Part shown: positions 8,989 through 27,807 of the stretch, piece after piece
Position numbering within the stretch: the first letter of the stretch is position 1
Layout of the letters: each line of letters opens with the position of its first letter
DNA from: a virus
Taxonomy: Duplodnaviria > Caudoviricetes
Length of the DNA: 50,961 bases
Reading direction: 5' to 3' (one strand)
IMG/VR virus record: IMGVR_UViG_3300041809_000337
Location: 1-50,961 of that record
Translations under genes and position numbers: made by a program
Notes under the pieces: model-generated
Told to the model about the DNA's origin: nothing
Seen by the model: the letters and a program-made list of their open reading frames with translations, nothing else
The model's database searches: none

Positions 8989-9963
8989 ATGGCTTGGCTA
9001 GGAGGCTGTGACGTATCTCGTTGGCAGGGCAACATTGATTGGGTTGCCCTTGACCCAGGTACGGCCTTCGTAGTCATCAAAGCATCAGGCGGAGATGATG
9101 GTTTATATCGTGACTCCCAGCTCACCGCTAATCAGACCGGCGCTCGCAGCATCTCATCCACTACGGGCGTCGGTTATTATCACTTCGCGGGCGGTGGTGA
9201 CCCAATAGCCGAAGCCGATTATTTTATACAACAAGTCGGTAACTTAGAGCAGGGTGAGTTTCTAGCTTTGGATTGGGAGATTGCCAACTCCGACCCAGTG
9301 AACTGGTGCCTGGCCTTCGTCAATGAAGTCCATGCCAAGACTAACATCTGGCCGCTGCTGTACGTCAATGCCTCAACTCTTAATAAATATACTTGGACAC
9401 CAGTAACGTCTAATTGCGGAGTATGGGTGGCCGATTGGGCAGTCAGCCCAGACGCCAGCATTGGCACCTCTTATACATACGTCATGCAGCAGTATAAAGA
9501 CAACGGTACGTTTCCAGGCATTACAGGTAATGTTGATGCTGATGCGTGGTTTGGAACCTTAGACGAACTTAAAGCCTACGGCTATCAGACAGCCTCTGTG
9601 CCTACTCCTGTGCCTACACCAGTACCTGTGCCAGCCCCAGCCCCTACGCCTGTTCCAACGCCCCCTACGCAGCCCACTTCACCTGTTATAGTCAATCAAC
9701 CAGTCAAGCCAGTTCCAGTCCCTGCTCCAGCCCCTAAACCGACACCCATACCAGTAGTATCAACTTTTAATGAGGATTTAACAGTGTTTGAAAAGTTTAT
9801 CCAAGAGCTGGGCAAACCAGCTAAGTATTCCAAGTTCTACGTAGCCATACTGGGCGTAGTAATCGCTTACTTGACCCACAAGTACGGCTCAACACCGTGG
9901 CTGACAGACGTGATCTACGCCCTGACCGCAGCAGGGGTTTATGTTGCACCCAATGTAAAATAG
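8989..9963 (+). CDS. Endolysin: GH25 muramidase + Pro/Thr linker + C-terminal two-TM holin-like domain
   Basis: DVSRWQG, IKASGG, GYYHF, LDWE, QY and VDAD GH25 motifs; PVPTP repeats; hydrophobic tail ending LTAAGVYVAPN. Confidence 0.9.
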   Translation: MAWLGGCDVSRWQGNIDWVALDPGTAFVVIKASGGDDGLYRDSQLTANQTGARSISSTTGVGYYHFAGGGDPIAEADYFIQQVGNLEQGEFLALDWEIANSDPVNWCLAFVNEVHAKTNIWPLLYVNASTLNKYTWTPVTSNCGVWVADWAVSPDASIGTSYTYVMQQYKDNGTFPGITGNVDADAWFGTLDELKAYGYQTASVPTPVPTPVPVPAPAPTPVPTPPTQPTSPVIVNQPVKPVPVPAPAPKPTPIPVVSTFNEDLTVFEKFIQELGKPAKYSKFYVAILGVVIAYLTHKYGSTPWLTDVIYALTAAGVYVAPNVK

Positions 9964-11356: not shown

Positions 11357-11851
11357 TTAGTCCTCCAAGAAATTTTCTGGCATGGGTTCGCGCTCTGTGT
11401 CATAGTGGTCATCAAAGTCCTCGTCCGAGGTGCTTTTCTGGTAATAAGGACCGTGGGCATTTACCGGTATCTCCGGTATTTCCGGTGTTGGTTCGTCTTC
11501 GCCCACCAGCTTATCAATCTTTTCTTCTATTCGTCTGAGTGCTTCCATCATCTCACCATCAGAACGGGTCTGTGAGCTTAATACAGGCTTTGTGGGCTGT
11601 TCTGGGTTTGAAGCTGACTCAGACACCACCTTGACCTTACGAAGCTGCCAATAGGTAGTTCCGTTCTTAGACTTTTTCATGGTCTTTTCTTCAGCCGTTA
11701 TGTCCATACCTTCTACGATATCTTGGTTGGACGAATTAAAACTTATCGGGGTGTCGTCACCCTCAGCGTAACCCCAGTACCTTTGAAAGTACATGGGGTC
11801 GAACTCACCCTGTTTGCTGATCTTAGTCAAAGTAAATTCAAACACGGGCAT
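11357..11851 (-). CDS. Putative ssDNA-binding protein (OB-like N-terminus, acidic tail); start revised to MPVFEF
   Basis: AAGGA upstream of ATG 11851; beta-rich N-half, acidic C-terminus DEDFDDH...FLED. Confidence 0.5.
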   Translation of the reverse strand: MPVFEFTLTKISKQGEFDPMYFQRYWGYAEGDDTPISFNSSNQDIVEGMDITAEEKTMKKSKNGTTYWQLRKVKVVSESASNPEQPTKPVLSSQTRSDGEMMEALRRIEEKIDKLVGEDEPTPEIPEIPVNAHGPYYQKSTSDEDFDDHYDTEREPMPENFLED

Positions 11852-12098
11852 GCTCCAATCCTTTGTCAAATGGCTCATCATTCGGCCTAAACCAAGGCTC
11901 TTTGTTCTTAATACCTTTACGTGAGCTCTTAGCCCCGCCAAGTTTTCCACAGGCAACAGCCCGTTCGTGGTCGTTCCAAAAGCCTCCGGTGTGGCCGCGC
12001 TGGCCGCCAATCCTGCCGATACGCTCGTAGAAATCACGCCCATACTTAGCATAGTTCATATCTCTGCCTTTTATCCCGCCTACTTTTGTAGCACTCAT
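11838..12098 (-). CDS. KGG-repeat (general stress/Con-10-like) protein
   Basis: YGRDFYERIGRIGG, TGGF, GKLGGAKS; AAGGAGG RBS. Confidence 0.8.
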   Translation of the reverse strand: MSATKVGGIKGRDMNYAKYGRDFYERIGRIGGQRGHTGGFWNDHERAVACGKLGGAKSSRKGIKNKEPWFRPNDEPFDKGLEHARV

Positions 12099-12113: not shown

Positions 12114-13304
12114 TCATGCTTCCGTTAAATTTAAATATTCACCTAACCCAATTCCGAAAGCCCTGGCTTGGCATAAATCAGCATCGCCTATCTCGCCGAC
12201 TTTAGGCTCAACCCACTCCAAGAAAACCCTATCAGTACTAGCATCTTTCATAACTATGCAGTATTCAGTCGAACCAGTATCCATGAAGTTTTTAACACGG
12301 TAAAGTTTAGTGCCTTTCTCTCCGGTATGTATGAGTTCGGCTTTCATCTGTTTGAGAAGCCTGTCTGGGCGGAGCATAGATAAGGCAGCAGCCCGTTGGT
12401 CGGCATTACCAATCGTCAGTACGTCTTTGGCGGTTACTTTATGGTTGATTATCTTGTTGTAAAGTTTCTCGTCAAACTGTACGCCTTGAAGAAAATAGAA
12501 TCCTGTCCCATTTGACCACTCCACCGCTTTGCCGTGGTCGTAGTGAAGTCGCTGGTCATTAGTAATCATGCGAGGCATAGGCACTAGGATTAATTTATCT
12601 TTCATGGGAAAGAAAAAGCCTAAGCCATTCTCTAGGGCTTTCAGGCTTTCGGTAGATATTTCAATCCATTTAAGGATAGATTTATCTTTTTTTTCAGAAT
12701 TGAGTAATCCAGCTAAAGACGCTGCGTCCCACGCTGCGTCCCGCGCTGCGTCCCACGCTGCGTTCCACGCTACGTTCCGCGCTACGTTCCGCGCTACGTT
12801 CCGCGCTGCGTCCCACGCTGCGTCCCGCGCTGCGTCCCGCGCTACGTTCCGCGCTGCGTTCCGCGCTGCGTCCCACGCTGCGTTCCACGCTGCGTTCCAC
12901 GCTACGTTCCGCGCTACGTTCCGCGCTGCGTTCCACGCTACGTTCCGCGCTACGTCCCGCGCTGCGTCCCGCGCTACGTCCCACGCTATTTGAAACCCAA
13001 TTACCATATCTTCGGCAATTTCAACATTAGGCATTTTTGTACCTAAAATTTCGTATTGTCGCTCAAAGCATTTTAAAACTACCTTCTCATTCCAGTAAGG
13101 TTCATCATAGTTAAGTTTTGCCAACCTATCTATAACTTTCTGGGCAGCTTTATTAATCTTTGGTGGCGTAAGTGACTGGTCTCCAGCAATCGTAGCCCCG
13201 ACTTGCCATAATGCGCCAAGTTGTGCAAAATTCTGTTGAGCCGCCTGCTGATTAGCCTGATTAAGCTGACTCATTAAATTAGATAAGTTATCTTCATTAT
13301 CCAT
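12114..13304 (-). CDS. DUF6745-like protein with A[RW][DN][AV] tetrapeptide repeats
   Basis: RLH...AVEW..G...YFLQGV, NADQR and DASTDR.F...V.P motifs; GAGGT RBS. Confidence 0.7.
   Translation of the reverse strand: MDNEDNLSNLMSQLNQANQQAAQQNFAQLGALWQVGATIAGDQSLTPPKINKAAQKVIDRLAKLNYDEPYWNEKVVLKCFERQYEILGTKMPNVEIAEDMVIGFQIAWDVARDAARDVARNVAWNAARNVARNVAWNAAWNAAWDAARNAARNVARDAARDAAWDAARNVARNVARNVAWNAAWDAARDAAWDAASLAGLLNSEKKDKSILKWIEISTESLKALENGLGFFFPMKDKLILVPMPRMITNDQRLHYDHGKAVEWSNGTGFYFLQGVQFDEKLYNKIINHKVTAKDVLTIGNADQRAAALSMLRPDRLLKQMKAELIHTGEKGTKLYRVKNFMDTGSTEYCIVMKDASTDRVFLEWVEPKVGEIGDADLCQARAFGIGLGEYLNLTEA
12723..12986 (-). repeat. 22 x 12-bp coding tandem repeat GCG YGG RAC GYA
   Basis: Read directly; only three positions per unit vary. 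Confidence 0.95.
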
Positions 13305-16050: not shown

Positions 16051-16242
16051 TCATTTGCTTTCCTTCTGTTTAGTTATGGGTCGCATTATGTTACTGCGAA
16101 TTTTTAAGCAGCCGTAGCAAATCTGGGTGAGGGCATCGTGGAAACTAGAGTAAGCCACCTGTTGCATGTGATGTCCCTCGCACTGCTGAATATGTTTGCG
16201 GACTTCTGTTTGGGTTGGCAGATATTCGTAATCAAAGGTCAT
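16051..16242 (-). CDS. Small Cys/His protein
   Basis: AAGGAG RBS; CEGHH...CYGC. Confidence 0.65.
   Translation of the reverse strand: MTFDYEYLPTQTEVRKHIQQCEGHHMQQVAYSSFHDALTQICYGCLKIRSNIMRPITKQKESK
16069..16134. repeat. 66-bp direct repeat, copy 2
   Basis: See 15565-15630. Confidence 0.9.
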
Positions 16243-17003
16243 CTTAGCTCCTTTAAGTCTTTAGCTAGCTTGAGCATGTAAGCATTAATCTTTTTGGTTA
16301 AGGCGTCATTGGCGGCATAGGTGGCATCGGTGGCATCGGTGGCATAGGTGGCGGCATAGGCGGCGGCATGGGTGGCGGCATTGGTGGCATTGGTGGCGGC
16401 ATTGGTGGCGGCATAGGCGGCATAGGCGGCATTGGCGGCGGCATAGGCGGCATCGGCGGCATAGATGGTGGCATTGGCGGTGGCATTGGCGGTGGCATTG
16501 GAGGCGGCATAGGCGTTATAGGTGGCATAGGCGGCATTGGCGGCGGCATAGGCGGCATTGGCGGCGGCATCGGCGGCATAGGCGTTAGCCTTAGTCGGCT
16601 TCTTTAGATATTTCTTAGCCGCCTCGATTGCATTTCTTGGTCGCTTATCATTAGGGTATTGCTTTTCGTAAATGTCAATGACTAGCTCGGCGGCGTAAAC
16701 CGCCAACTTGACCGAAGTTATCTTATCCCACTCCCACGCCTGAACTATCCGCATTTTCTGATGACAGTGCTTATCATTTTCAGCGTCTTTGTCTTTTTTA
16801 CCGGCAACTTCAACCTTAGCCAGGACTGTTCCGCTCACATACGAAAAGGCTTGGTAAATCTTATCCGAACAGTGTAAGCCGTTGTGACAGCACCTTATCT
16901 TGCCCTTAACCTCTTGCCATTCGTTTATACGCCAAGTAACATTACCAGAGCGTGACACAATCTTCTTGCGATGGAGGTCTAGGAATTTGTAATAAGTTTT
17001 CAC
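16239..17003 (-). CDS. Phage protein with C..GLH domain, YP.D.RPR.AIEAA (Imm5-like) helix and Ala/Tyr/Asn repeats
   Basis: CCHNGLHCS; YPNDKRPRNAIEAAK; AAYAAANA tract. Confidence 0.7.
   Translation of the reverse strand: MKTYYKFLDLHRKKIVSRSGNVTWRINEWQEVKGKIRCCHNGLHCSDKIYQAFSYVSGTVLAKVEVAGKKDKDAENDKHCHQKMRIVQAWEWDKITSVKLAVYAAELVIDIYEKQYPNDKRPRNAIEAAKKYLKKPTKANAYAADAAANAAYAAANAAYATYNAYAASNATANATANATIYAADAAYAAANAAYAAYAATNAATNATNAATHAAAYAATYATDATDATYAANDALTKKINAYMLKLAKDLKELR
16310..16586 (-). repeat. Low-complexity GCC-rich coding repeat (9-12 bp units)
   Basis: Arrays of ggcggcatag/ggtggcattg on the + strand. Confidence 0.9.
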
Positions 17004-17299
17004 TTTAACTCCTTATTAGTTATGGGGGCGGTATTATCTATTATTTTTTTGGGTATTCGTTCAACCATGCCATAATGTTCGCCGAATTGTTCTGTCTTGG
17101 GGCTGTATCGCCCAGCCAACACCACGCATAAATCGTCTTCATAAACTCGCCACCCCACGCTTGTAACTTTATATGCTTCGTCTTTAGCAAAACTCGTTAA
17201 CTCATCTGTATCATGCCAACTACCGGCTACGTTTTGGACATCAACCCAATCAACCTTTACTATCGGGGGATAATCGACCCTACCAATATCACTTGCCAT
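17000..17299 (-). CDS. Hypothetical protein (V.W.D...W...SVGW family)
   Basis: Coupled ORF, GGGAG RBS. Confidence 0.65.
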   Translation of the reverse strand: MASDIGRVDYPPIVKVDWVDVQNVAGSWHDTDELTSFAKDEAYKVTSVGWRVYEDDLCVVLAGRYSPKTEQFGEHYGMVERIPKKIIDNTAPITNKELK

Positions 17300-17540
17300 G
17301 ATTAGACTCCCCTAGGTGTTTTTCCCACCCATCATATTTTAATTCAGTTCTGGTATGAATTTTGCCGTCTAACCCTTCATAGTCTTCTGTCTTGGTGGGT
17401 GGGTTAAAGTAATAATCAGAGTTACCGACCTTGATAACTACTGCCTTGCCGCTGTCTAAAATTACGGCGACTGCCCCATTCCTAAACAATTGATTGAGCA
17501 TATCCAACTTACCAATGGCTTTTATACTATCAGGGTTCAT
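17289..17540 (-). CDS. Hypothetical protein (start MNPDS)
   Basis: GAGG RBS before ATG 17540. Confidence 0.6.
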   Translation of the reverse strand: MNPDSIKAIGKLDMLNQLFRNGAVAVILDSGKAVVIKVGNSDYYFNPPTKTEDYEGLDGKIHTRTELKYDGWEKHLGESNHGK

Positions 17541-17907
17541 TGTGATTATCCTCTCCCTCAGCATTGGGGTTAGACTTTAATTGTTTGATACGAGCTTCTA
17601 TCCACTTAAGTTCAATATCTTTAATCATAAAAATGGATAACATCAAAGAAGATTTAATATGTTCTTTATACTTCTCAGCTTCGTCAATCCTACCTTTAAC
17701 TACTTCTTCAGCAAGTACCTGTTCAAAGTTAGCTTCATGTAATTTATGGAGTTCGTTATTAGCTTTTACTGCTTCAACCTCACGCCTATTACAATAATCA
17801 TTGATGGCTTGTTTGGCTTCTTGCCGGTAGGAAATAACCTCACTATCGTGGATATCTAGTTGGTCTAATAGTTTTTCTAGCTCATCATTTGAAGTATCTT
17901 TAGTCAT
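17530..17907 (-). CDS. Hypothetical helical protein
   Basis: EAKQAI, GRIDE, RIKQLK mosaic motifs typical of phage early small genes. Confidence 0.6.
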   Translation of the reverse strand: MTKDTSNDELEKLLDQLDIHDSEVISYRQEAKQAINDYCNRREVEAVKANNELHKLHEANFEQVLAEEVVKGRIDEAEKYKEHIKSSLMLSIFMIKDIELKWIEARIKQLKSNPNAEGEDNHNEP

Positions 17908-18071
17908 GGAGTGGGTGAGGAAGTATCCTCACAACTCCTCTCCTCGAACAATTTGTCGAACTCATCGGTCAGGTAAGTAGGGAAGTCTTCTATCTCTACC
18001 TCTTGAAGTTCTAACAGAGCTTTAGCTATCTCTAGTTCTTTTTGCACTTCTATGAGTTGGTCTTCATTCAT
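17904..18071 (-). CDS. Small acidic protein (55 aa, not in ORF track), first gene of the operon
   Basis: MNEDQLIEVQKELEIAKALLELQEVEIEDF...; ATGA overlap with the next gene. Confidence 0.65.
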   Translation of the reverse strand: MNEDQLIEVQKELEIAKALLELQEVEIEDFPTYLTDEFDKLFEERSCEDTSSPTP

Positions 18072-18077
18072 GTCTTT

Positions 18078-18142
18078 AGTCTAGCATAGCTGTTCAGTAA
18101 TGTCCAGTGTAACATAAATGCCTTGTGATAACTTGTGGATAA
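18078..18142 (-). promoter_or_regulatory. Promoter TGGACA-17-TAGACT (extended -10, leaderless) with upstream DnaA box
   Basis: -10 at 18078-18083, -35 at 18101-18106, TGTGGATAA at 18134-18142. Confidence 0.6.
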
Positions 18143-18151
18143 GTCGGGGTA

Positions 18152-18180
18152 TAAAAGAAAAGCCCCCTATTGCTAGGGGA
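18152..18180 (-). terminator. Rho-independent terminator
   Basis: CCCCTA-GCAA-TAGGGG hairpin followed by GCTTTTCTTTT on the minus strand. Confidence 0.7.
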
Positions 18181-18196
18181 CTAAGCTTACGACGGC

Positions 18197-18234
18197 TTGA
18201 CAACATACTAACACGTGGATTATTATAATGTCAA
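18197..18234. promoter_or_regulatory. Overlapping bidirectional promoter pair
   Basis: + strand: TTGACA(18197)-18-TATTAT; - strand: TTGACA(18234)-18-TAGTAT. Confidence 0.6.
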
Positions 18235-18491
18235 CTCTAGGCAGGCTCACGACGGCCACCAGGGGAGTATAAAGAACCTGGTACACAGCTCGAAAGAGCC
18301 CACAAGTCGGACAGAGGCTAGGCGTATGGCCAGTGATACGCCCACAGTGCATGGTCTGCAAGCTCATTAACAAATTTAGATTGTCACAAATATTGTTACT
18401 AGTCTTGTTAGATAAACAATAAAGACAACCTAACATTTAGCGCACCCATGCATAGTGGGCGAGTTGTGAGGTTGCCTACACCTAGAGGGTT
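18233..18491 (+). ncRNA. Candidate ~260-nt highly structured ncRNA of unknown class
   Basis: Helix 18238-53/18463-78 (15/16 pairs), helix 18339-54/18446-61 (15/16), GCTC-GAAA-GAGC tetraloop, ACCAGG/CCTGGT stem; begins at the predicted TSS. Confidence 0.65.
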
Positions 18492-18522
18492 ATTAAAAGA
18501 ATAGGCTTATTTGACGTGTATT

Positions 18523-18551
18523 AAAAAAGCCCGGCAGCATAACTACCGGGC
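18523..18551 (-). terminator. Rho-independent terminator of the leftward 19.9 kb operon
   Basis: GCCCGGTAG-TTATG-CTGCCGGGC-TTTTTT on the minus strand. Confidence 0.8.
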
Positions 18552-18619
18552 AAGTTCAGAATGATGGGTTCCGCTGGATGGCCTTGTAACCATGGTGCCG
18601 AACCCACTACATTATACAT

Positions 18620-18712
18620 TCAGAACATAACAAATATAAACGCACCCAGTAAGTATAGAAATATCCCAAAGCCTAAGACTTCAAGAACATCTATCCATAG
18701 CTTGTCTTTCAT
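18620..18712 (-). CDS. 30-aa single-TM peptide (not in ORF track)
   Basis: AAAGGA RBS; MKDKLWIDVLEVLGFGIFLYLLGAFIFVMF. Confidence 0.6.
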   Translation of the reverse strand: MKDKLWIDVLEVLGFGIFLYLLGAFIFVMF

Positions 18713-18762
18713 TTTTATTTCCTTTATTTATTATTTATTACAATTCTACAACATTATATTAA

Positions 18763-18859
18763 TGGGTTCGATTTACACTAGACCGACGGCCAGTATTGTT
18801 ACGCAGGCAAGACCTGCCGCAAATCACCCTGACCCGTCCCTCCAGTACAAACCAACCCA
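18763..18859 (-). other. ~97-nt long RNA hairpin in the leader of the TM peptide gene
   Basis: TGGGTTGGTTTGTACTGGA pairs with TCTAGTGTAAATCGAACCCA using several G-U pairs; inner GACGG/CCGTC and GCAGG/CCTGC stems. Confidence 0.6.
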
Positions 18860-18982
18860 CTCCATTAAACACTTCATTAGTAACAGTACCTAACACGTGT
18901 ATAGGTGGTTGGCTGTAGGCATGCGGCCTCATTTAAACCGTCGCAACTGCATTACTGCTGTAGTTGAAGGTCACCAACACCA

Positions 18983-19153
18983 TTATTCTACTACTTGGAA
19001 CTTACGGGCCCACCAGATTTCTCGGCTGCCCATTTCGTTTCGTGCTTCTTCTATTGCTTCTCGCCAATCGTGTCCGGAACAAAGTAATACTTGTGGTTCC
19101 CAGAACCCGAATTGCTCATACTGAACTTCACAGGTTACAATAAAGTGTTTCAT
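18983..19153 (-). CDS. Small hypothetical protein (56 aa, not in ORF track)
   Basis: AAAGGTG RBS; MKHFIVTCEVQYEQFGFWEPQ... Confidence 0.65.
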   Translation of the reverse strand: MKHFIVTCEVQYEQFGFWEPQVLLCSGHDWREAIEEARNEMGSREIWWARKFQVVE

Positions 19154-19256
19154 GATTTTACACCTTTCATGATTGTTATATAATATTGCGAACCCCTAAC
19201 ACGTGCTAAACACTGTTACTAATTGATAGGCACATCACAGACTAGCGGTTAATTAA

Positions 19257-19595
19257 TTAAGCGTAAACTTGGCTATTTACTAACTTTTGTATCTCACGGG
19301 CTAGCAAATGCTTGTATAAGTCCCATACTTGCTGATTGCTATATTTCTTATTCTCTGGATTAATACCAAGTGAATTTAAGAAATCTTCTTGCTCTTGGTA
19401 ATAGATTAAAAATGTACCACCTTCAACCAAATGTAGGCCGGTCATATAATTATTCTCGTTACCGATTCGCATTGAATTGATTTGCTCTGTTAAATTAGCA
19501 GTAGAATTGTCGTTATTCCATCCCATATCAGATGTAAAATAACTCAAAACATGTTCTTGCACTTTAGCAATGACTTGCTTGTTGTCCGTTCTCAT
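19257..19595 (-). CDS. Early hypothetical protein
   Basis: 112 aa, GGTFLIYY...WDLYKHLLAREI. Confidence 0.7.
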   Translation of the reverse strand: MRTDNKQVIAKVQEHVLSYFTSDMGWNNDNSTANLTEQINSMRIGNENNYMTGLHLVEGGTFLIYYQEQEDFLNSLGINPENKKYSNQQVWDLYKHLLAREIQKLVNSQVYA

Positions 19596-19598
19596 ATT

Positions 19599-19832
19599 TT
19601 ATATCCAATCCTTAGGGAAGGTTTTACTCCAGTTTATGCCTAGATAATCAGCGTAAGCTTTTGCATAGCCTTCCGTAATAGCTAAATCAGCACCATGATT
19701 AGTAACCCATACATAAGATTGTAAATCTTTAATTTTATCTTCGTACCACTGTTTAACAGTAGTCTTATTTGGCTTGAATTGATTCAAGTGGCTGCTCATA
19801 CCATTGTAAAAGTATTTAGTCAGAGTTTTCAT
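19599..19832 (-). CDS. Early hypothetical protein
   Basis: AAAGGA RBS; first gene after the strong promoter. Confidence 0.7.
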   Translation of the reverse strand: MKTLTKYFYNGMSSHLNQFKPNKTTVKQWYEDKIKDLQSYVWVTNHGADLAITEGYAKAYADYLGINWSKTFPKDWI

Positions 19833-19964
19833 AGTGTTTAATCCTTTCTGTGAAACTTATTGATAACTTAATTGTTATCTTAATAAGCCCTTACTGATGC
19901 TTTACCGTGATTGATTTGTGAAGTTTCAAGTTAAGTAATATCTTTTTGGCTTAACCTAACCTCT

Positions 19965-20023
19965 ATTGTATGCTCACATAACGGCTATGTCAATACCCAT
20001 TATTAAAGATTATCTGTGGATAA
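19965..20023 (-). promoter_or_regulatory. Strong early promoter TTGACA-17-TACAAT with upstream DnaA box
   Basis: -35 at 19988-19993, -10 at 19965-19970, TGTGGATAA at 20015-20023. Confidence 0.75.
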
Positions 20024-20336
20024 CTTAATATTTTACGACAGGCCATTTACAAGCCGCACCCACCCATTACAACCTTTAAACACTAAAATATACTACTTAA
20101 AGCCTAGAAGCGGTTTAAAATGCTTTAAAATGCGTCTAACGAGTTACCAGACTGAGTTACAACCTTGACATACTTACGCCCACTCAAAACGCACCCAACC
20201 CAATACATTAAAAGATGTACTAAAGTCTTAGGTTTATTCAATTGATTGTTTTTATAGTAGATTGTATTTTTATTCATAGCATTATCATAATATCACATAT
20301 TCATTTATAAGTCAATGATTATGTTATAGTTGATTT

Positions 20337-20795
20337 ATGGTTGAGTTATCTGAGAAGCAAGAGAAATTGATCGAGCTTAAGTCACAAGGCATGAAAAATA
20401 AGGATATAGCCGCCATATTATATCCTGAGGCCACAGAACACGCCGGGGCGGTGATTATATCACGTGAGTTACAAAAACCCCACGTCGCAAAATACGTCCA
20501 ACAGGGAAGAGACGCAATACTAAAGAAATATGATATCAATTGGAATACAATAATCGCCAAACTTGTGATCATGTTAAACGCAGAGAAGACAGACGGTTTA
20601 ACCGGTGAGATCAAGCCGGATTATGTCTTGCAACTCCAGGTTATCAAGACAATCCTACCCATGCTTGACAAGGCCAACCCACAACAAAACCCCATTAAAA
20701 ACTATCCAGAACTACAAAGAGCTTTAGACAAAGGGAATGAGGTTGAATTACAAAGACTTGTTTTCAAGAAAAACGAACCCATAACAAACCCATAA
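20337..20795 (+). CDS. terS: Terminase small subunit
   Basis: LSEKQ N-terminal HTH, A...SRELQKP.V..Y motif; upstream of TerL. Confidence 0.75.
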   Translation: MVELSEKQEKLIELKSQGMKNKDIAAILYPEATEHAGAVIISRELQKPHVAKYVQQGRDAILKKYDINWNTIIAKLVIMLNAEKTDGLTGEIKPDYVLQLQVIKTILPMLDKANPQQNPIKNYPELQRALDKGNEVELQRLVFKKNEPITNP

Positions 20796-20940
20796 CAAAT
20801 ACTTAAACAACTCATAATATAGACAAGTAAGAACAGATAAAAACTAACGAATACGGAACAGACAAGCAGACAACAGACTGGACTAGACAAAGCTTAAGCA
20901 TTTACAGCCCTTTTAAGCCTTTTTAATCTGTTAAGTTGTA

Positions 20941-21215
20941 TCAATCATCAACTATAGAACTAACTATACAGTCGCACATTACACATTGTACATTACACAT
21001 TGCACATTGTACGACCTAACTAACAGATACAGCCAACTCACTACATACATATACATATATACACACTATATATAGCGTACACATAACATATTAAGATATT
21101 ATATTAACCAACTTGCTAGGTTGACAATCAACAAGATTAACAGATACAGCTTGCCTAGTTGAGTGCTACACACCGTCATGTAATCTACACACTATATATA
21201 CATATATTAATCAGA
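20941..21215. repeat. Non-coding repeat-rich, strand-biased region; candidate pac/terminus region
   Basis: ACATT(A/G) arrays framed by GTCGCACA...TGTACGAC; TAACAGATACAGC x2; TACACACTATATATA x2. Confidence 0.55.
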
Positions 21216-21273
21216 CAGTCCGATTCACCCAGTCAGATTCTTCTCTCGCTGGCTAGAAAAAAATTTATCTCTA

Positions 21274-21326
21274 TTGACAATGTATAATGTATAAGGTACA
21301 ATGTATACATTAAAGGTATAAGGTAT
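21274..21326 (+). promoter_or_regulatory. Promoter TTGACA-17-TACAAT overlaid by 7-bp A(T/G)GTA(T/C)A operator-like repeats
   Basis: -35 at 21274-21279, -10 at 21297-21302; ATGTATA ATGTATA AGGTACA ATGTATA...AGGTATA. Confidence 0.75.
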
Positions 21327-21606
21327 GATTCAAATAACAGCCTATCTTAAAGATGAAGAAGATTTAAAGATATGGAAGAAGGTGGAGAACAAGTCAGCCT
21401 TCCTGCACAATACATTACAAGGTATACATGGTAATGTACAAGGTAGTAAACCAGTCAGAATTGATACTGTTCCTGAAGCTGAAGAAGCTGTCAAACAATT
21501 AAAGCAAGGAAAGAAAGTTAAGGACATGCATACTTGTCCTAATGGTCATTTGGTCCCAGAAGGTAGTACTAAATGTATGGCGAAAGGTTGTAAGTATAAT
21601 GGATGA
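21325..21606 (+). CDS. Putative ribbon-helix-helix regulator with C-terminal zinc finger
   Basis: QITAYL strand plus NKSAFLH helix; CPNGH...C...C. Confidence 0.55.
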   Translation: MIQITAYLKDEEDLKIWKKVENKSAFLHNTLQGIHGNVQGSKPVRIDTVPEAEEAVKQLKQGKKVKDMHTCPNGHLVPEGSTKCMAKGCKYNG

Positions 21607-21955: not shown

Positions 21956-23491
21956 ATGGACGCTAACCAGCTCAGTCTTATCAAGATAGCCCAGCGATGC
22001 CGGTGGGACCTGTTCTTTCTCGCTAAGTACATCCTCCATTATGATCTGATGACTGAGGATGTCCATGGGGATATGTGCAGATATGCCGAGTCCCTCTACC
22101 AAGCCCATCCTGCGGATTGGATACCGCCGGAAGAAAAAGTAGGCGAAGGGCTGGAAGACCAGTTCCATTACGGAAACTCGGATCTGATGATCCTTATGCC
22201 CAGAGGCACGTTCAAAAGTTCCGTCATCACTATCGGGTTCGCCCTCCAGTATATCCTGAACGACCCCAATGTCAGAATCCTGATAGACTCTGAGACGTTC
22301 TCCAAGAGCAAGGCGTTCCTGGCAGAGATCAAGGGACATATGGAATCCAACGAAGAGTATCGGGAAATCTTCCGGACGGTCCATGGGATTTATCCCAATG
22401 AAGGCAGGAAGAAAGAAATCCTCTGGACTGATTCACATCTGAATATCGCCTGCCGGACACGCCAGAGGAAGGAACCGACACTCTCCTGTGCCGGAATCGA
22501 CGTCACCAAGACGGGTATGCACTTCGACCTGATACTTTTCGACGACCTGCACTCCGAGACCAACGTGACGAACAAGGACCAGATCGACAAGGTCAAGGAC
22601 CACTGGAGACTGTCCTATTCCCTGCTCGACCCAGGCAAACCGATGATTATCGTCGGTACACGTTGGCACTTCGACGACCTCTACCAGATGATTCTCGATG
22701 ATTATCGGGACACGTTCAACATCCTGATAAGAAAAGCCATCCTGCCGGACGGCAAGGCGTTCTTTCCAGAGAGGCTTCCCTTGCCTGAACTGACTAAACT
22801 TAAACATAAGTTAGGTAGTGGGAATTTCAGCAAGCAGTATCTCAACGAACCTATCGACGATGAGACGGCCACGTTCAAGAGAAGGGACATGATTAAGCGT
22901 GACTGGGCGCTGGTCAAGGACAGGCCCGTCAACTGGTATCTCTCGGTCGACCCTTCCTACGCCGGTGAGTATTCAGACTACGCCGCCCTGGTCTGCGTGG
23001 GGATGGATTTCCTGCGGGAACTCTATGTGCGTCATGTCACCCGTCAGAAGATGACCTACTCGGAAATCATCGGTAAGATATTCGAGCTGAACCAGCAGTA
23101 CCAGCCCAAGATGATTATCTTAGAGACCGTCTTCGCCCAGAAATCCATCATGTACGAACTCAATAATGAGATGAAACGACGTGGGGTGTGGCTGCCCATC
23201 CAGGAAATCAAACAGCAGAGCAAGAGCAAAGAGGAACGGATTAGAGCCTTAGCTCCCTTCTACGAGTTCCACCACATCTACCACATTAAAGGTTGTCCCC
23301 AGCTGGACGAACTGGAGTACGAACTGTTACGCTTCCCGTCCGGTAAGAACGACGACACTATCGACGCCCTGGCTAACGTTCTCGGCTTTGCCCAAGCCCC
23401 TACTGCTAGGACGAAGGCGACTGAGGGTTATCCTGACGACCCCCGCCCTACTGCTTACAGACCACGCATTTCTCGCATTACGGGCTACTAG
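21956..23491 (+). CDS. terL: Terminase large subunit
   Basis: Walker A-like PRGTFKS, TG.HFDLILFDD, GTRWH..D, SVDP, DYAA, and DDTIDALA nuclease motif. Confidence 0.95.
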   Translation: MDANQLSLIKIAQRCRWDLFFLAKYILHYDLMTEDVHGDMCRYAESLYQAHPADWIPPEEKVGEGLEDQFHYGNSDLMILMPRGTFKSSVITIGFALQYILNDPNVRILIDSETFSKSKAFLAEIKGHMESNEEYREIFRTVHGIYPNEGRKKEILWTDSHLNIACRTRQRKEPTLSCAGIDVTKTGMHFDLILFDDLHSETNVTNKDQIDKVKDHWRLSYSLLDPGKPMIIVGTRWHFDDLYQMILDDYRDTFNILIRKAILPDGKAFFPERLPLPELTKLKHKLGSGNFSKQYLNEPIDDETATFKRRDMIKRDWALVKDRPVNWYLSVDPSYAGEYSDYAALVCVGMDFLRELYVRHVTRQKMTYSEIIGKIFELNQQYQPKMIILETVFAQKSIMYELNNEMKRRGVWLPIQEIKQQSKSKEERIRALAPFYEFHHIYHIKGCPQLDELEYELLRFPSGKNDDTIDALANVLGFAQAPTARTKATEGYPDDPRPTAYRPRISRITGY

Positions 23492-27288: not shown

Positions 27289-27807
27289 ATGTCTCAAACT
27301 GTAGCGGGACTACAAGTCCCAACAGCTATAGGACGTATAGACGGCCACACCAACTATGCCTCTCAAGCCTTCGTGGTAGCGAGCGGTGTAACTGTTACCA
27401 ATGGAGATTTTGTATATTTCTCCAGTGGTGCGATTACCTCTGCTGCAGCTTACCAAGCAAGACTAATCGGCATGGCAGAAGGTACTGGTACGGGTACGGC
27501 AACGGGAACAGTTACTGTTTCTGTTTGCGTTGACCGTAACATGCGATATCTACTGAAGTCGGTAACTTCGTTGACCATTTCTAATGGCACCAACAGTTAC
27601 ATCGGTCAGTATTTTGATATCACGAACGGTACCGGTACTGGTGTTCAAACGGTTACTGCAGTCGGAACAACTGTCGGTCAATTTGTACTGATAGGTATTC
27701 CTGGTATGACTGGTTTCCCATCATCGGGATTGACCGGTTTGCCAACTGGTAACTATGGCGTGTTTGTATTAGCAAACTCATTCTTAAACCCATACGTGGC
27801 GGGTTAG
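27289..27807 (+). CDS. Capsid decoration/cement protein
   Basis: V..GDFV...G, IG.A motifs; between scaffold and MCP. Confidence 0.7.
   Translation: MSQTVAGLQVPTAIGRIDGHTNYASQAFVVASGVTVTNGDFVYFSSGAITSAAAYQARLIGMAEGTGTGTATGTVTVSVCVDRNMRYLLKSVTSLTISNGTNSYIGQYFDITNGTGTGVQTVTAVGTTVGQFVLIGIPGMTGFPSSGLTGLPTGNYGVFVLANSFLNPYVAG

Follow-up and report, generated by a model that had tools for sequence, protein, structure and literature searches.

Introduction

In the plasmid ColE1, RNAI overlaps the 5' part of the RNAII primer on the other DNA strand and is fully complementary to it, and origins of this type involve a persistent RNA-DNA hybrid, a cut by RNase H, and extension by Pol I at a defined site. 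Examples of divergent type I toxin-antitoxin systems are tisB/istR-1, zorO/orzO, and shoB/ohsC, and a moron is an independent insert of promoter, gene, and terminator between phage genes. Among phage RNAs, one report describes the StxS RNA of Stx phages as a short RNA by-product of PR' control (PMC7547250), and two others describe anti-small-RNA morons encoded by prophages of enterohemorrhagic Escherichia coli (PMC4104026) and, for virulent phages, documented non-coding RNAs (ncRNAs), short terminated 5' RNAs, and antisense RNAs (PMC10914365). Phage small and antisense RNAs and RNA-bearing morons are already a known kind of element (PMC4104026, PMC10914365). Here, we compare such systems with an exchangeable non-coding cassette at 18145-18596 that contains two predicted RNA genes, and which belongs to a phage genome of 50,961 bases (IMG/VR record IMGVR_UViG_3300041809_000337; this whole stretch of DNA was analysed, and is referred to as the window).

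The record represents a whole virus genome (estimated completeness 98%) from an uncultured phage, and recurs in wetland and peat metagenomes. Its structural and packaging genes run rightward from 20337 (TerS, TerL at 21956-23491, and portal) and continue across the ends of the record as far as a GH25 endolysin (8989-9963), with the small early genes forming a leftward block from about 20277 down to 10693. The two-RNA element sits within this leftward block, in a mostly non-coding stretch (18072-19256) between two leftward early operons. An initial annotation of the same DNA had considered this element as a candidate RNA-controlled origin in a phage with no replication gene. Our computations establish the transcription signals at the level of sequence, the statistics of the fold, the complementarity, the polymorphism of the cassette, and the lack of any coding or family match. 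Our preferred reading, in which we place middling confidence, is that 18145-18596 is a self-contained, protein-free two-RNA cassette (an "RNA moron") that would serve early-gene timing or competition between co-infecting relatives, and not replication.

Results and discussion

Interlocked promoters and their shared motif

By means of a consensus scan, we recovered both of the overlapping, opposed promoters that the initial annotation had placed at 18197-18234, these being of the sigma-70 type and matching 11 (rightward) and 10 (leftward) of the 12 consensus positions (Table 1). The two are interlocked in a single 38-bp block, with each start site located at the -35 hexamer of the opposite promoter. 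Promoter-like sites with at least 11/12 matches number five in the window, and all of these are found within 18197-21302, compared with a mean of 0.8 and a maximum of three in 20 shuffles. At 10/12 or better there are 20 sites, nine of them in this same 3-kb stretch.

The spacer shared by the two promoters contains a 10-nt motif, CTAACACGTG, which has two further perfect copies at 18890-18899 and 19196-19205, all three being on the + strand and within 1 kb. In fact, three copies compare with an expected 0.10, a count that was reached in none of the 100 shuffles. The copy at 19196 adjoins a second interlocked divergent promoter pair (19157-19209), and since the motif thus stands beside both divergent pairs, this suggests that one DNA-binding factor governs the two of them. 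Judged by its placement, CTAACACGTG is a candidate operator, and suggests that the cassette is tied into the promoter network of the phage early region.

The small leftward RNA and its pairing site

The leftward promoter is followed by an intrinsic terminator (18182-18161), and together they predict an RNA of 46-47 nt, in close agreement with the terminated transcript of about 45 nt proposed earlier. Its 16-nt 5' tail is free of structure, and the 11/12 complementarity that had been noticed between this tail and the closing helix of the long rightward RNA was upheld as well. The 12-mers at 18185-18196 and 18245-18256 are 92% identical, and the tail/target duplex has an energy of -21.3 kcal/mol, which is equalled by one of 1000 shuffled tails. 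Across the genome, the tail duplex is matched by three of 618 windows, two of which cover the small RNA's own gene, and the target is the best non-self site.

Moreover, the outcome of pairing depends on how far the long RNA has been made. When the small RNA was cofolded with nascent forms of the long RNA (ending at 18262, 18300, and 18345), the free-energy change (ddG) was -13.6 to -14.7 kcal/mol. With the completed long RNA the ddG was 0.0 and no intermolecular pairs were found, and holding the target site open in that RNA costs 15 kcal/mol. Binding is therefore predicted to nascent forms only, so that if the two RNAs meet, they must meet during transcription. None of the cofolds disrupts the small RNA's terminator hairpin, which leaves no simple RNA antitermination route via this pairing.

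The long rightward RNA

Folding of the + strand interval 18233-18480 gave a minimum free energy of -90.4 kcal/mol (z -5.41), with none of 200 shuffles being as stable. The end-to-end fold that had been proposed for the rightward transcript is well supported, as every helix named for it is present. Here, the closing helix (18238-18253/18463-18478), the base of the extended hairpin (18339-18354/18446-18461), and the hairpins at 18288-18299 and 18258-18282 are paired with probabilities of 0.81-1.0, a single mismatch in each excepted, and the closing helix begins 5 nt past the predicted start. For a comparison with the rest of the genome, we folded 250-nt windows every 50 nt (1015 per strand) and used GC-corrected residuals. 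The exact interval has a + strand residual of -28.8 kcal/mol, which is the lowest and is reached by none of the 1015 windows.

The initial annotation had favored the + strand in view of its G-U pairs and GNRA loop. This preference stands insofar as the + strand has the better fold and the better placed signals, but the support from G-U pairs is weak: these account for only 5 of the 79 pairs in the + fold, and the energetic preference for this strand is accordingly modest. A stronger argument than energy is the placement of promoters and terminators, with the - strand of the interval falling between the terminator at 18551-18529 and a promoter. The hairpin at 18321-18342, which had been regarded as mutually exclusive with the neighboring helix and hence as a switch, did not fare as proposed, for forcing it costs only 1.7 kcal/mol and it coexists with a slightly shortened neighboring helix.

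Table 1. Predicted features of the two-RNA cassette and its surroundings, with coordinates of the window.
Feature	Position	Strand	Details
Exchangeable non-coding cassette	18145-18596		Defined by contigs of other peat runs (borders 18144/18145 and 18596/18597)
Rightward sigma-70-type promoter	18197-18226	+	TTGACA-18-TATTAT, 11/12; predicted start ~18233
Leftward sigma-70-type promoter	18234-18205	-	TTGACA-18-TAGTAT with extended TG, 10/12; predicted start ~18198
Motif CTAACACGTG, candidate operator	18208-18217	+	In shared promoter spacer; 3 perfect copies in window
Predicted small RNA, 46-47 nt	18198-18152	-	From promoter and terminator scan; 16-nt free 5' tail, then intrinsic terminator
Small-RNA intrinsic terminator stem-loop	18182-18161	-	9 pairs, followed by T run
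Predicted structured long RNA, about 246 nt	18233-18480	+	From promoter placement and fold
Closing helix, 5' arm / 3' arm	18238-18253 / 18463-18478	+	15 bp; pair probabilities 0.87-1.0, one mismatch
Site complementary to small-RNA 5' tail	18243-18256	+	13 bp, one mismatch; long RNA +11 to +24
Hairpin with 13-nt loop	18258-18282	+	Pair probabilities 0.88-1.0
4-bp hairpin with GAAA tetraloop	18288-18299	+	Pair probabilities 0.99-1.0
Extended hairpin, 123 nt	18339-18461	+	GC-rich base 18339-18354/18446-18461, AU-rich upper part (~18360-18440); inverted repeat I2
Intrinsic terminator closing the upstream leftward early operon	18551-18529	-	Inside cassette; 10 pairs (7 G-C), T6
Perfect DnaA-box 9-mer TGTGGATAA	18134-18142	+	Just outside left end of cassette; kept in strains without cassette
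Second interlocked divergent promoter pair	19157-19209	+/-	+ TTTACA-16-TATAAT, 11/12 (19157-19184); - TTAGCA-18-TATTAT, 9/12

Exchange of the cassette among related phages

We aligned contigs from four other peat runs (X2 to X5) to positions 17800-19000. In X3, X4, and X5, which come from three studies, the match ends exactly at 18144 and is followed by unrelated sequence (134, 14, and 114 letters, respectively). X3 and X5 have the same continuation past 18144, and in X5 the match resumes at 18597. From these sharp breaks it follows that 18145-18596 is a cassette, and one that is replaced rather than simply deleted in related populations. As X3 also has a contig identical to 18300-18520, both forms coexist in this run. 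In X2, the stretch from 18114 to 18617 is without substitution, with one 12-nt insertion after 18571, and all seven substitutions of this contig are in the adjoining 134 nt (17980-18113). Within the exchanged segment are both RNA genes, the promoter pair, the terminator that ends the small RNA, and the one that ends the upstream operon.

Beyond the cassette borders, X5 has 29 nt at 17909-17939 replaced by 203 other letters, and an X3 contig diverges after 18793. On the evidence of such alignments, the stretch at 17.9-19.0 kb is a mosaic hot spot.

Only one complete relative was found, namely G001, a circular assembly of 47.6 kb that is collinear with the window and has a TerL that is 72% identical. 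It shows no protein or DNA similarity to 17003-20337, with no cassette counterpart detected, and its matching non-coding gap has neither a significant fold (z -0.89) nor a promoter pair. A 9-mer shared with G001 (ACTCTAGGC) was rejected as homology, since its E value of 2.9 is what chance would give. The cassette is also missing from L011, a more distant relative and the one match when genome contigs were searched with a TerL profile. This 49.7-kb contig is of phage-like size (GC 0.52), belongs to an actinobacterial metagenome-assembled genome labelled Lysinibacter, and is the only GTDB genome match for the TerL family. It may be a misbinned phage contig, which makes it a poor clue to the host.

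Searches for families, homologues, and coding potential

To place the cassette among known RNAs, we searched the whole window with Rfam 15, which gave zero matches at the gathering threshold. For 17800-19300, with E up to 10, there were only terminator look-alikes (13-18 bits, against thresholds of 38-84), and none of the type I antitoxin or toxin-mRNA families matched even at this level. Thus, the Rfam check that the initial annotation had called for assigned the long RNA to no known family at either setting. A decoy akin to CsrB, 6S, or Y RNA was set aside for want of an Rfam signal and otherwise by eye, and a miniature inverted-repeat transposable element was rejected, by eye only, as there are no terminal inverted repeats at the borders.

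Sequence comparisons were equally empty. With blastn, we found no homologue of 17900-18800 among phages, and no match of the cassette among plasmids or E. coli genomes. Exact words and patterns from the cassette retrieved no genuine homologue from IMG/VR, nor did scans of the same database with the neighboring 125-aa (amino acid) and 112-aa proteins. Three IMG/VR contigs (L013-L015) have only an 18-mer in common with it and a GC content of 0.70, and were dismissed as chance. A metagenome scan with a 20-mer from the left junction matched only an unrelated bacterial contig (L010), which was likewise rejected. The only other copies of the cassette, in X2 and partly in X3, are identical in sequence.

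As for protein-coding potential, the only small open reading frames (ORFs) of the cassette are one of 14 aa with a Shine-Dalgarno (SD)-like GAGG and another of 23 aa without an SD. Pfam gave no match for any cassette ORF, including the 23-aa ORF and the longer ORFs across the promoters. Right of the cassette, a 110-aa frame on the + strand is broken by indels in X5. Taken with the strong fold and the cassette's own promoters and terminators, the lack of an Rfam match and of a coding signal agrees with the earlier suggestion of a new phage ncRNA class, which would still be a candidate one, no homologue having been found in these searches.

Proposed mechanism and points that weigh against it

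Production of both RNAs, their pairing, and the possible role of the module are inferences from the evidence above. With interlocked hexamers on opposite strands, the 38-bp block would accommodate only one RNA polymerase at a time. Rightward firing would produce an RNA of at least 246 nt with a closed multi-branch fold, consisting of the 15-bp closing helix, the GAAA hairpin, and the 123-nt AU-rich arm. Leftward firing would yield the 46-nt RNA, with its 16-nt free 5' tail and intrinsic terminator. The promoter pair could thus be a toggle between a large structured RNA and a tiny one that is able to disturb the folding of the large one. Capture of the closing helix's 5' arm by the tail would be confined to nascent forms of the long RNA, with nothing gained once this helix has closed, and if the two RNAs interact, the small RNA would act kinetically by redirecting long-RNA folding. 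Both divergent promoter pairs may be controlled by one DNA-binding factor via CTAACACGTG.

A bolder form of this mechanism, which we regard as distinctly unlikely, would have the cassette be an RNA-only specificity module, in which the 46-nt RNA decides between two folds of the 246-nt RNA by the kinetic logic of ColE1 copy control, and related strains carry different alleles that do not cross-react, at one site adjoining a conserved DnaA box. In a phage where replication, lysogeny, and repressor genes are not recognisable, replication priming or exclusion between co-infecting relatives could be set in this way. Were it true, this would amount to a new class of phage RNA switch that is exchanged as a cassette.

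Several observations count against the two-RNA cassette as we read it. First, the tail has a second-best site that trails the target by just 0.8 kcal/mol, and when the small RNA is taken in full, its duplex does not stand out, being equalled by 9.7% of windows. Second, no + strand terminator was found within 17500-19500, and the 3' end of the long RNA is undefined. Third, the fold is less singular than its rank implies. The runner-up + window (at about 27.5 kb, in a structural gene) has a residual of -27.0 and is only 1.8 kcal/mol behind, and this comparison sets an interval with chosen coordinates against 1015 windows whose coordinates were not chosen. The - strand of the same interval also folds well (-84.4 kcal/mol, z -3.84), its residual of -18.6 being matched or beaten by 17 of the 1015 windows. 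Fourth, no homologue that could lend the structure support by covariation or selection was found among phages, plasmids, and E. coli genomes, in IMG/VR, with the metagenome word, or in G001 and L011, and the identity of the X2 cassette may reflect recent recombination and not constraint. Lastly, among the 11 runs listed with this region, none is an RNA run.

Alternative explanations

Many of the same points would suit an explanation without any dedicated function, in which the signals and fold arose in a fast-evolving, recombination-prone gap, and the long RNA is spurious or a by-product of convergent or antisense transcription against the early operon. We consider this unlikely, even if it is the best placed of the rivals. 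Consistent with it are the confinement of the cassette to a single lineage without a homologue and the existence of other windows that fold almost as well, as within the structural genes at 27351-27750 (+), where several overlapping 250-nt windows are nearly as stable (residuals of -23 to -27 kcal/mol). The gap at 18300-18900 is also rich in structure on the - strand. Moreover, the + promoter at 19157-19184 would give a transcript that is antisense to the 112-aa early gene at 19257-19595 and is unstructured (z +0.69), and + strand promoters in this region therefore need not make structured RNAs. What speaks against chance is the coincidence of independent signals, namely two promoters (10-11/12), two terminators, and a helix that begins 5 nt after a start, together with tail complementarity at the 1-in-1000 level and a common 10-nt motif.

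The second alternative concerns the leftward promoter (18234-18205), which would be the real promoter of the operon at 18071-10693, with the 46-nt RNA as a premature leader and read-through requiring an antitermination factor. The rightward RNA would then either take part in that control or be a divergent product in its own right. Going upstream from the operon, whose first gene starts at 18071, the leftward promoter is the first - strand site with 10/12 matches or more, and there is no other such site between 18640 and 12475; the terminator follows 16-46 nt after the start. There is precedent as well, in that two reports describe a short RNA by-product of PR' control (PMC7547250) and short RNAs from premature termination in phage 5' untranslated regions (PMC10914365). 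However, no Q- or N-like protein was recognised among the early ORFs when these were put through general scans with Pfam, PHROGs, and NCBIfam, though no dedicated Q-family search was made. Furthermore, a weaker promoter of the leaderless type (18106-18078; 9/12, TG) is placed directly before the gene and, being in the conserved flank, is kept by strains without the cassette. Pairing with the long RNA also leaves the terminator hairpin intact in the cofolds. On balance, a terminated leader seems to us unlikely too, and a little more so than the absence of function.

We give still less credence to a divergent type I toxin-antitoxin system, which looks quite improbable. In this case, the long RNA would be a locked toxin mRNA and the 46-nt RNA an antitoxin that pairs near its 5' end. 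The arrangement of the promoters is divergent, a free 5' tail can pair with positions +11 to +24 in the long RNA, the transcript is buried by the 5'-3' closing helix, and the cassette is accessory and swappable, all of which would fit. So would the 23-aa ORF (18351-18422), whose start codon is inside a helix and which is leucine-rich with a hydrophobic run of about 10 residues. Yet this ORF has no SD, its hydrophobic run is too short for a typical membrane toxin, Pfam gives it no match, no Rfam type I family was found, and there are no homologues in which coding constraint might be seen.

The replication-origin question

In the least probable of the alternatives, the one toward which the initial annotation had inclined, the long RNA would prime an RNA-controlled origin and be inhibited by the small RNA, with help from the DnaA box at 18134, in a phage without replication proteins of its own. 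Within the searches made, the claim that replication genes are not recognisable in this phage was borne out. Searches of the early ORFs with Pfam, PHROGs, and NCBIfam recognised no polymerase, helicase, primase, or initiator, and no DnaB_C, Phage_rep_O, or RVT_1 match came from six-frame searches. A phmmer search of the PDB with the 396-, 231-, and 132-aa early proteins produced no meaningful match, and none with an E below 0.0098, and in the protein Atlas the early proteins corresponded only to DUF6745 or to unnamed viral clusters. The sole early products that could be named are a NinG/Rap-like nuclease, a PD-(D/E)XK exonuclease, DUF6745, and DUF7666. For the DUF6745 protein, the largest unknown among these early proteins, an AlphaFold2 model made from 60 of the 373 homologues found (predicted local distance difference test score of 82) had 182 PDB fold matches at E up to 10, none of which reached E 0.001, and this family is unmentioned in the literature searched. 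The absence of recognisable replication genes is nonetheless weak evidence, and does not point to the cassette.

The DnaA box at 18134 is indeed perfect, as had been stated, but it is solitary, lies outside the cassette, and is one of ten perfect copies of TGTGGATAA that are scattered over the genome (5382, 15036, 18134, 20015, 24659, 25580, 26923, 32773, 49710, and 49778) and are mostly inside structural genes. Given that the same 9-mer recurs ten times, a lone perfect box beside a structured RNA is no evidence of an origin. Ten copies compare with 0.58 expected, a 17-fold excess that was reached in none of 100 shuffles. G001 has two copies and L011 none, and titration or recruitment of host DnaA are among the possibilities for this lineage-specific excess. 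When one mismatch is allowed, there are 25 boxes in the genome, of which two are in 17000-21500 and one of these is at 18134, so forming no cluster; the densest 600-nt window has three boxes, at about 32.5-33.3 kb. Nor was a GC-skew switch, which had been suggested as a check, found near 18 kb. Cumulative skew falls steadily over 10-27 kb without a turn there, though this is a weak test, as the skew of small phages follows transcription.

A more promising place for such control is found 1.8 kb right of the cassette. In the early intergenic region, only two conserved islands are common to the window and G001, both of them in 19965-20023 (in G001, L007 1744-1810). One, a block of 17 nt, includes the -35 of a leftward promoter (19993-19965; 11/12), and the other, a block of 13 nt, includes a DnaA box (20015-20023), the two being 20-29 nt apart. 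This region is also the most AT-rich of the genome (GC 0.35), and a search with the conserved pattern of promoter plus DnaA box matched G001 only. Based on such conservation, 19965-20023 is a better candidate than the cassette for a DnaA-controlled early promoter or origin.

An RNA-primed origin in the cassette could draw on the strong promoter, the AU-rich upper arm (~18360-18440), the ability of the small RNA to alter nascent long-RNA folding in a manner like the ColE1 logic, the lack of a recognised replication protein, and a DUF6745 model without a PDB fold match, but it is very improbable, in that the cassette is swapped in X3, X4, and X5 while the flank with the DnaA box stays, the collinear G001 has no similar sequence, no significant fold, and no promoter pair in the matching gap, the box is solitary and the skew without a turn, the two RNAs diverge and so lack the overlap of the RNAI/RNAII geometry, and a better-conserved DnaA box stands beside a conserved promoter elsewhere.

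Features neighboring the cassette

Just right of the cassette, on the - strand, is a gene (18620-18712) for a strongly hydrophobic 30-aa peptide, which has an AAGGA ribosome-binding site and is followed by a hairpin (18565-18606) and then the terminator at 18551-18529. Its product has no family match, and may be a toxin-like peptide or a small membrane protein. Farther along, between this gene and one of 56 aa, the leftward early transcript contains a 98-nt extended hairpin (18764-18861) with an energy of -49.1 kcal/mol (z -5.19) on the - strand and -27.2 on the + strand. Being far stabler on the former, it is clearly a - strand RNA structure. This hairpin has a third copy of the CGACGGC core of the small-RNA/target repeat, with three of the eight copies in the window being located in 18190-18790.

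Among the early proteins, the DUF7666 protein, which has an Imm5-like part, and the DUF6745 protein (16239-17003 and 12114-13304, respectively, on the - strand) have alanine-rich AAxxAA repeats in common, and a search with one retrieves families of the other. For the 231-aa ORF (11357-12052, - strand), there are only three homologues, of 137-164 aa, that cover its C-terminal 54-71%. As all are shorter, the true start is probably downstream of the listed ATG.

Comparison with known systems

Returning to the two-RNA cassette as our preferred reading, we find its resemblance to ColE1 RNAII/RNAI to be one of logic, with a long structured RNA from a strong promoter and a small RNA that pairs with only the nascent 5' part. 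Unlike in ColE1, the genes here diverge (starts at ~18233 on + and ~18198 on -), and the complementarity consists of 13 bp acting in trans only. Moreover, there is no sequence or Rfam match to ColE1, the plasmid blastn was empty, the element is dispensable or replaceable where an origin would be expected in all close relatives, and nothing shows a primer function. An oriC-like DnaA origin differs in having a cluster of boxes next to an unwinding element and a GC-skew switch, and neither a box cluster nor such a switch was found at this site.

Closer in layout are the divergent toxin-antitoxin loci tisB/istR-1, zorO/orzO, and shoB/ohsC, in which back-to-back promoters, a short 5' complementarity to a folded RNA of 250-350 nt, and an accessory or mobile nature are all shared with the cassette, although a convincing toxin ORF or family match is missing from the latter. 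The retron msr-msd architecture is likewise similar in its terminal inverted repeats, a G after the 5' arm, small hairpins, and a long hairpin abutting the 3' arm. A retron ncRNA was rejected, as a six-frame search of the whole record for a reverse transcriptase (PF00078) gave zero matches at E up to 1, with 4 of 14 control genomes positive, and no Rfam retron was found.

With respect to phage RNAs, the 6S RNA of lambda PR'-tR' and StxS have in common with the small RNA a strong promoter, a terminator within tens of nt, and a position upstream of a long operon, an arrangement whose short RNA product may be regulatory in itself. In contrast, no Q-like antiterminator was recognised here, the promoter is interlocked with an opposing one predicted to produce a large structured RNA, and the unit is swappable. 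P22 sar, P1/P7 c4, and P4 CI RNA are also small phage RNAs whose specificity comes from a short complementarity to a nearby transcript, in regions that differ between similar phages. These, however, are from temperate phages or satellites and have known protein targets, whereas the partner in the cassette is a large non-coding RNA.

Taken as a whole, a closed 246-nt RNA with a divergent 46-nt partner, on a swappable and protein-free cassette of a single lineage, matches no described family that was testable here, and would add a large structured phage RNA that is without an Rfam family. Should the modelled interaction between the two RNAs take place, nature would offer a second case, beyond plasmids, of control in which a folding intermediate is captured during transcription. 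In its organization the cassette is most like a moron, having its own promoter and terminator, being present or replaced among relatives, and having sharp borders. Where it departs from morons is in carrying two opposed promoters and two RNAs in lieu of a protein gene, and in residing in a phage that shows no lysogeny genes (neither an integrase nor an HTH_3 repressor was found in the phage). Since the phages of uncultured hosts are annotated almost only by their proteins, such a two-RNA unit would show that the cargo of a moron can be pure RNA.

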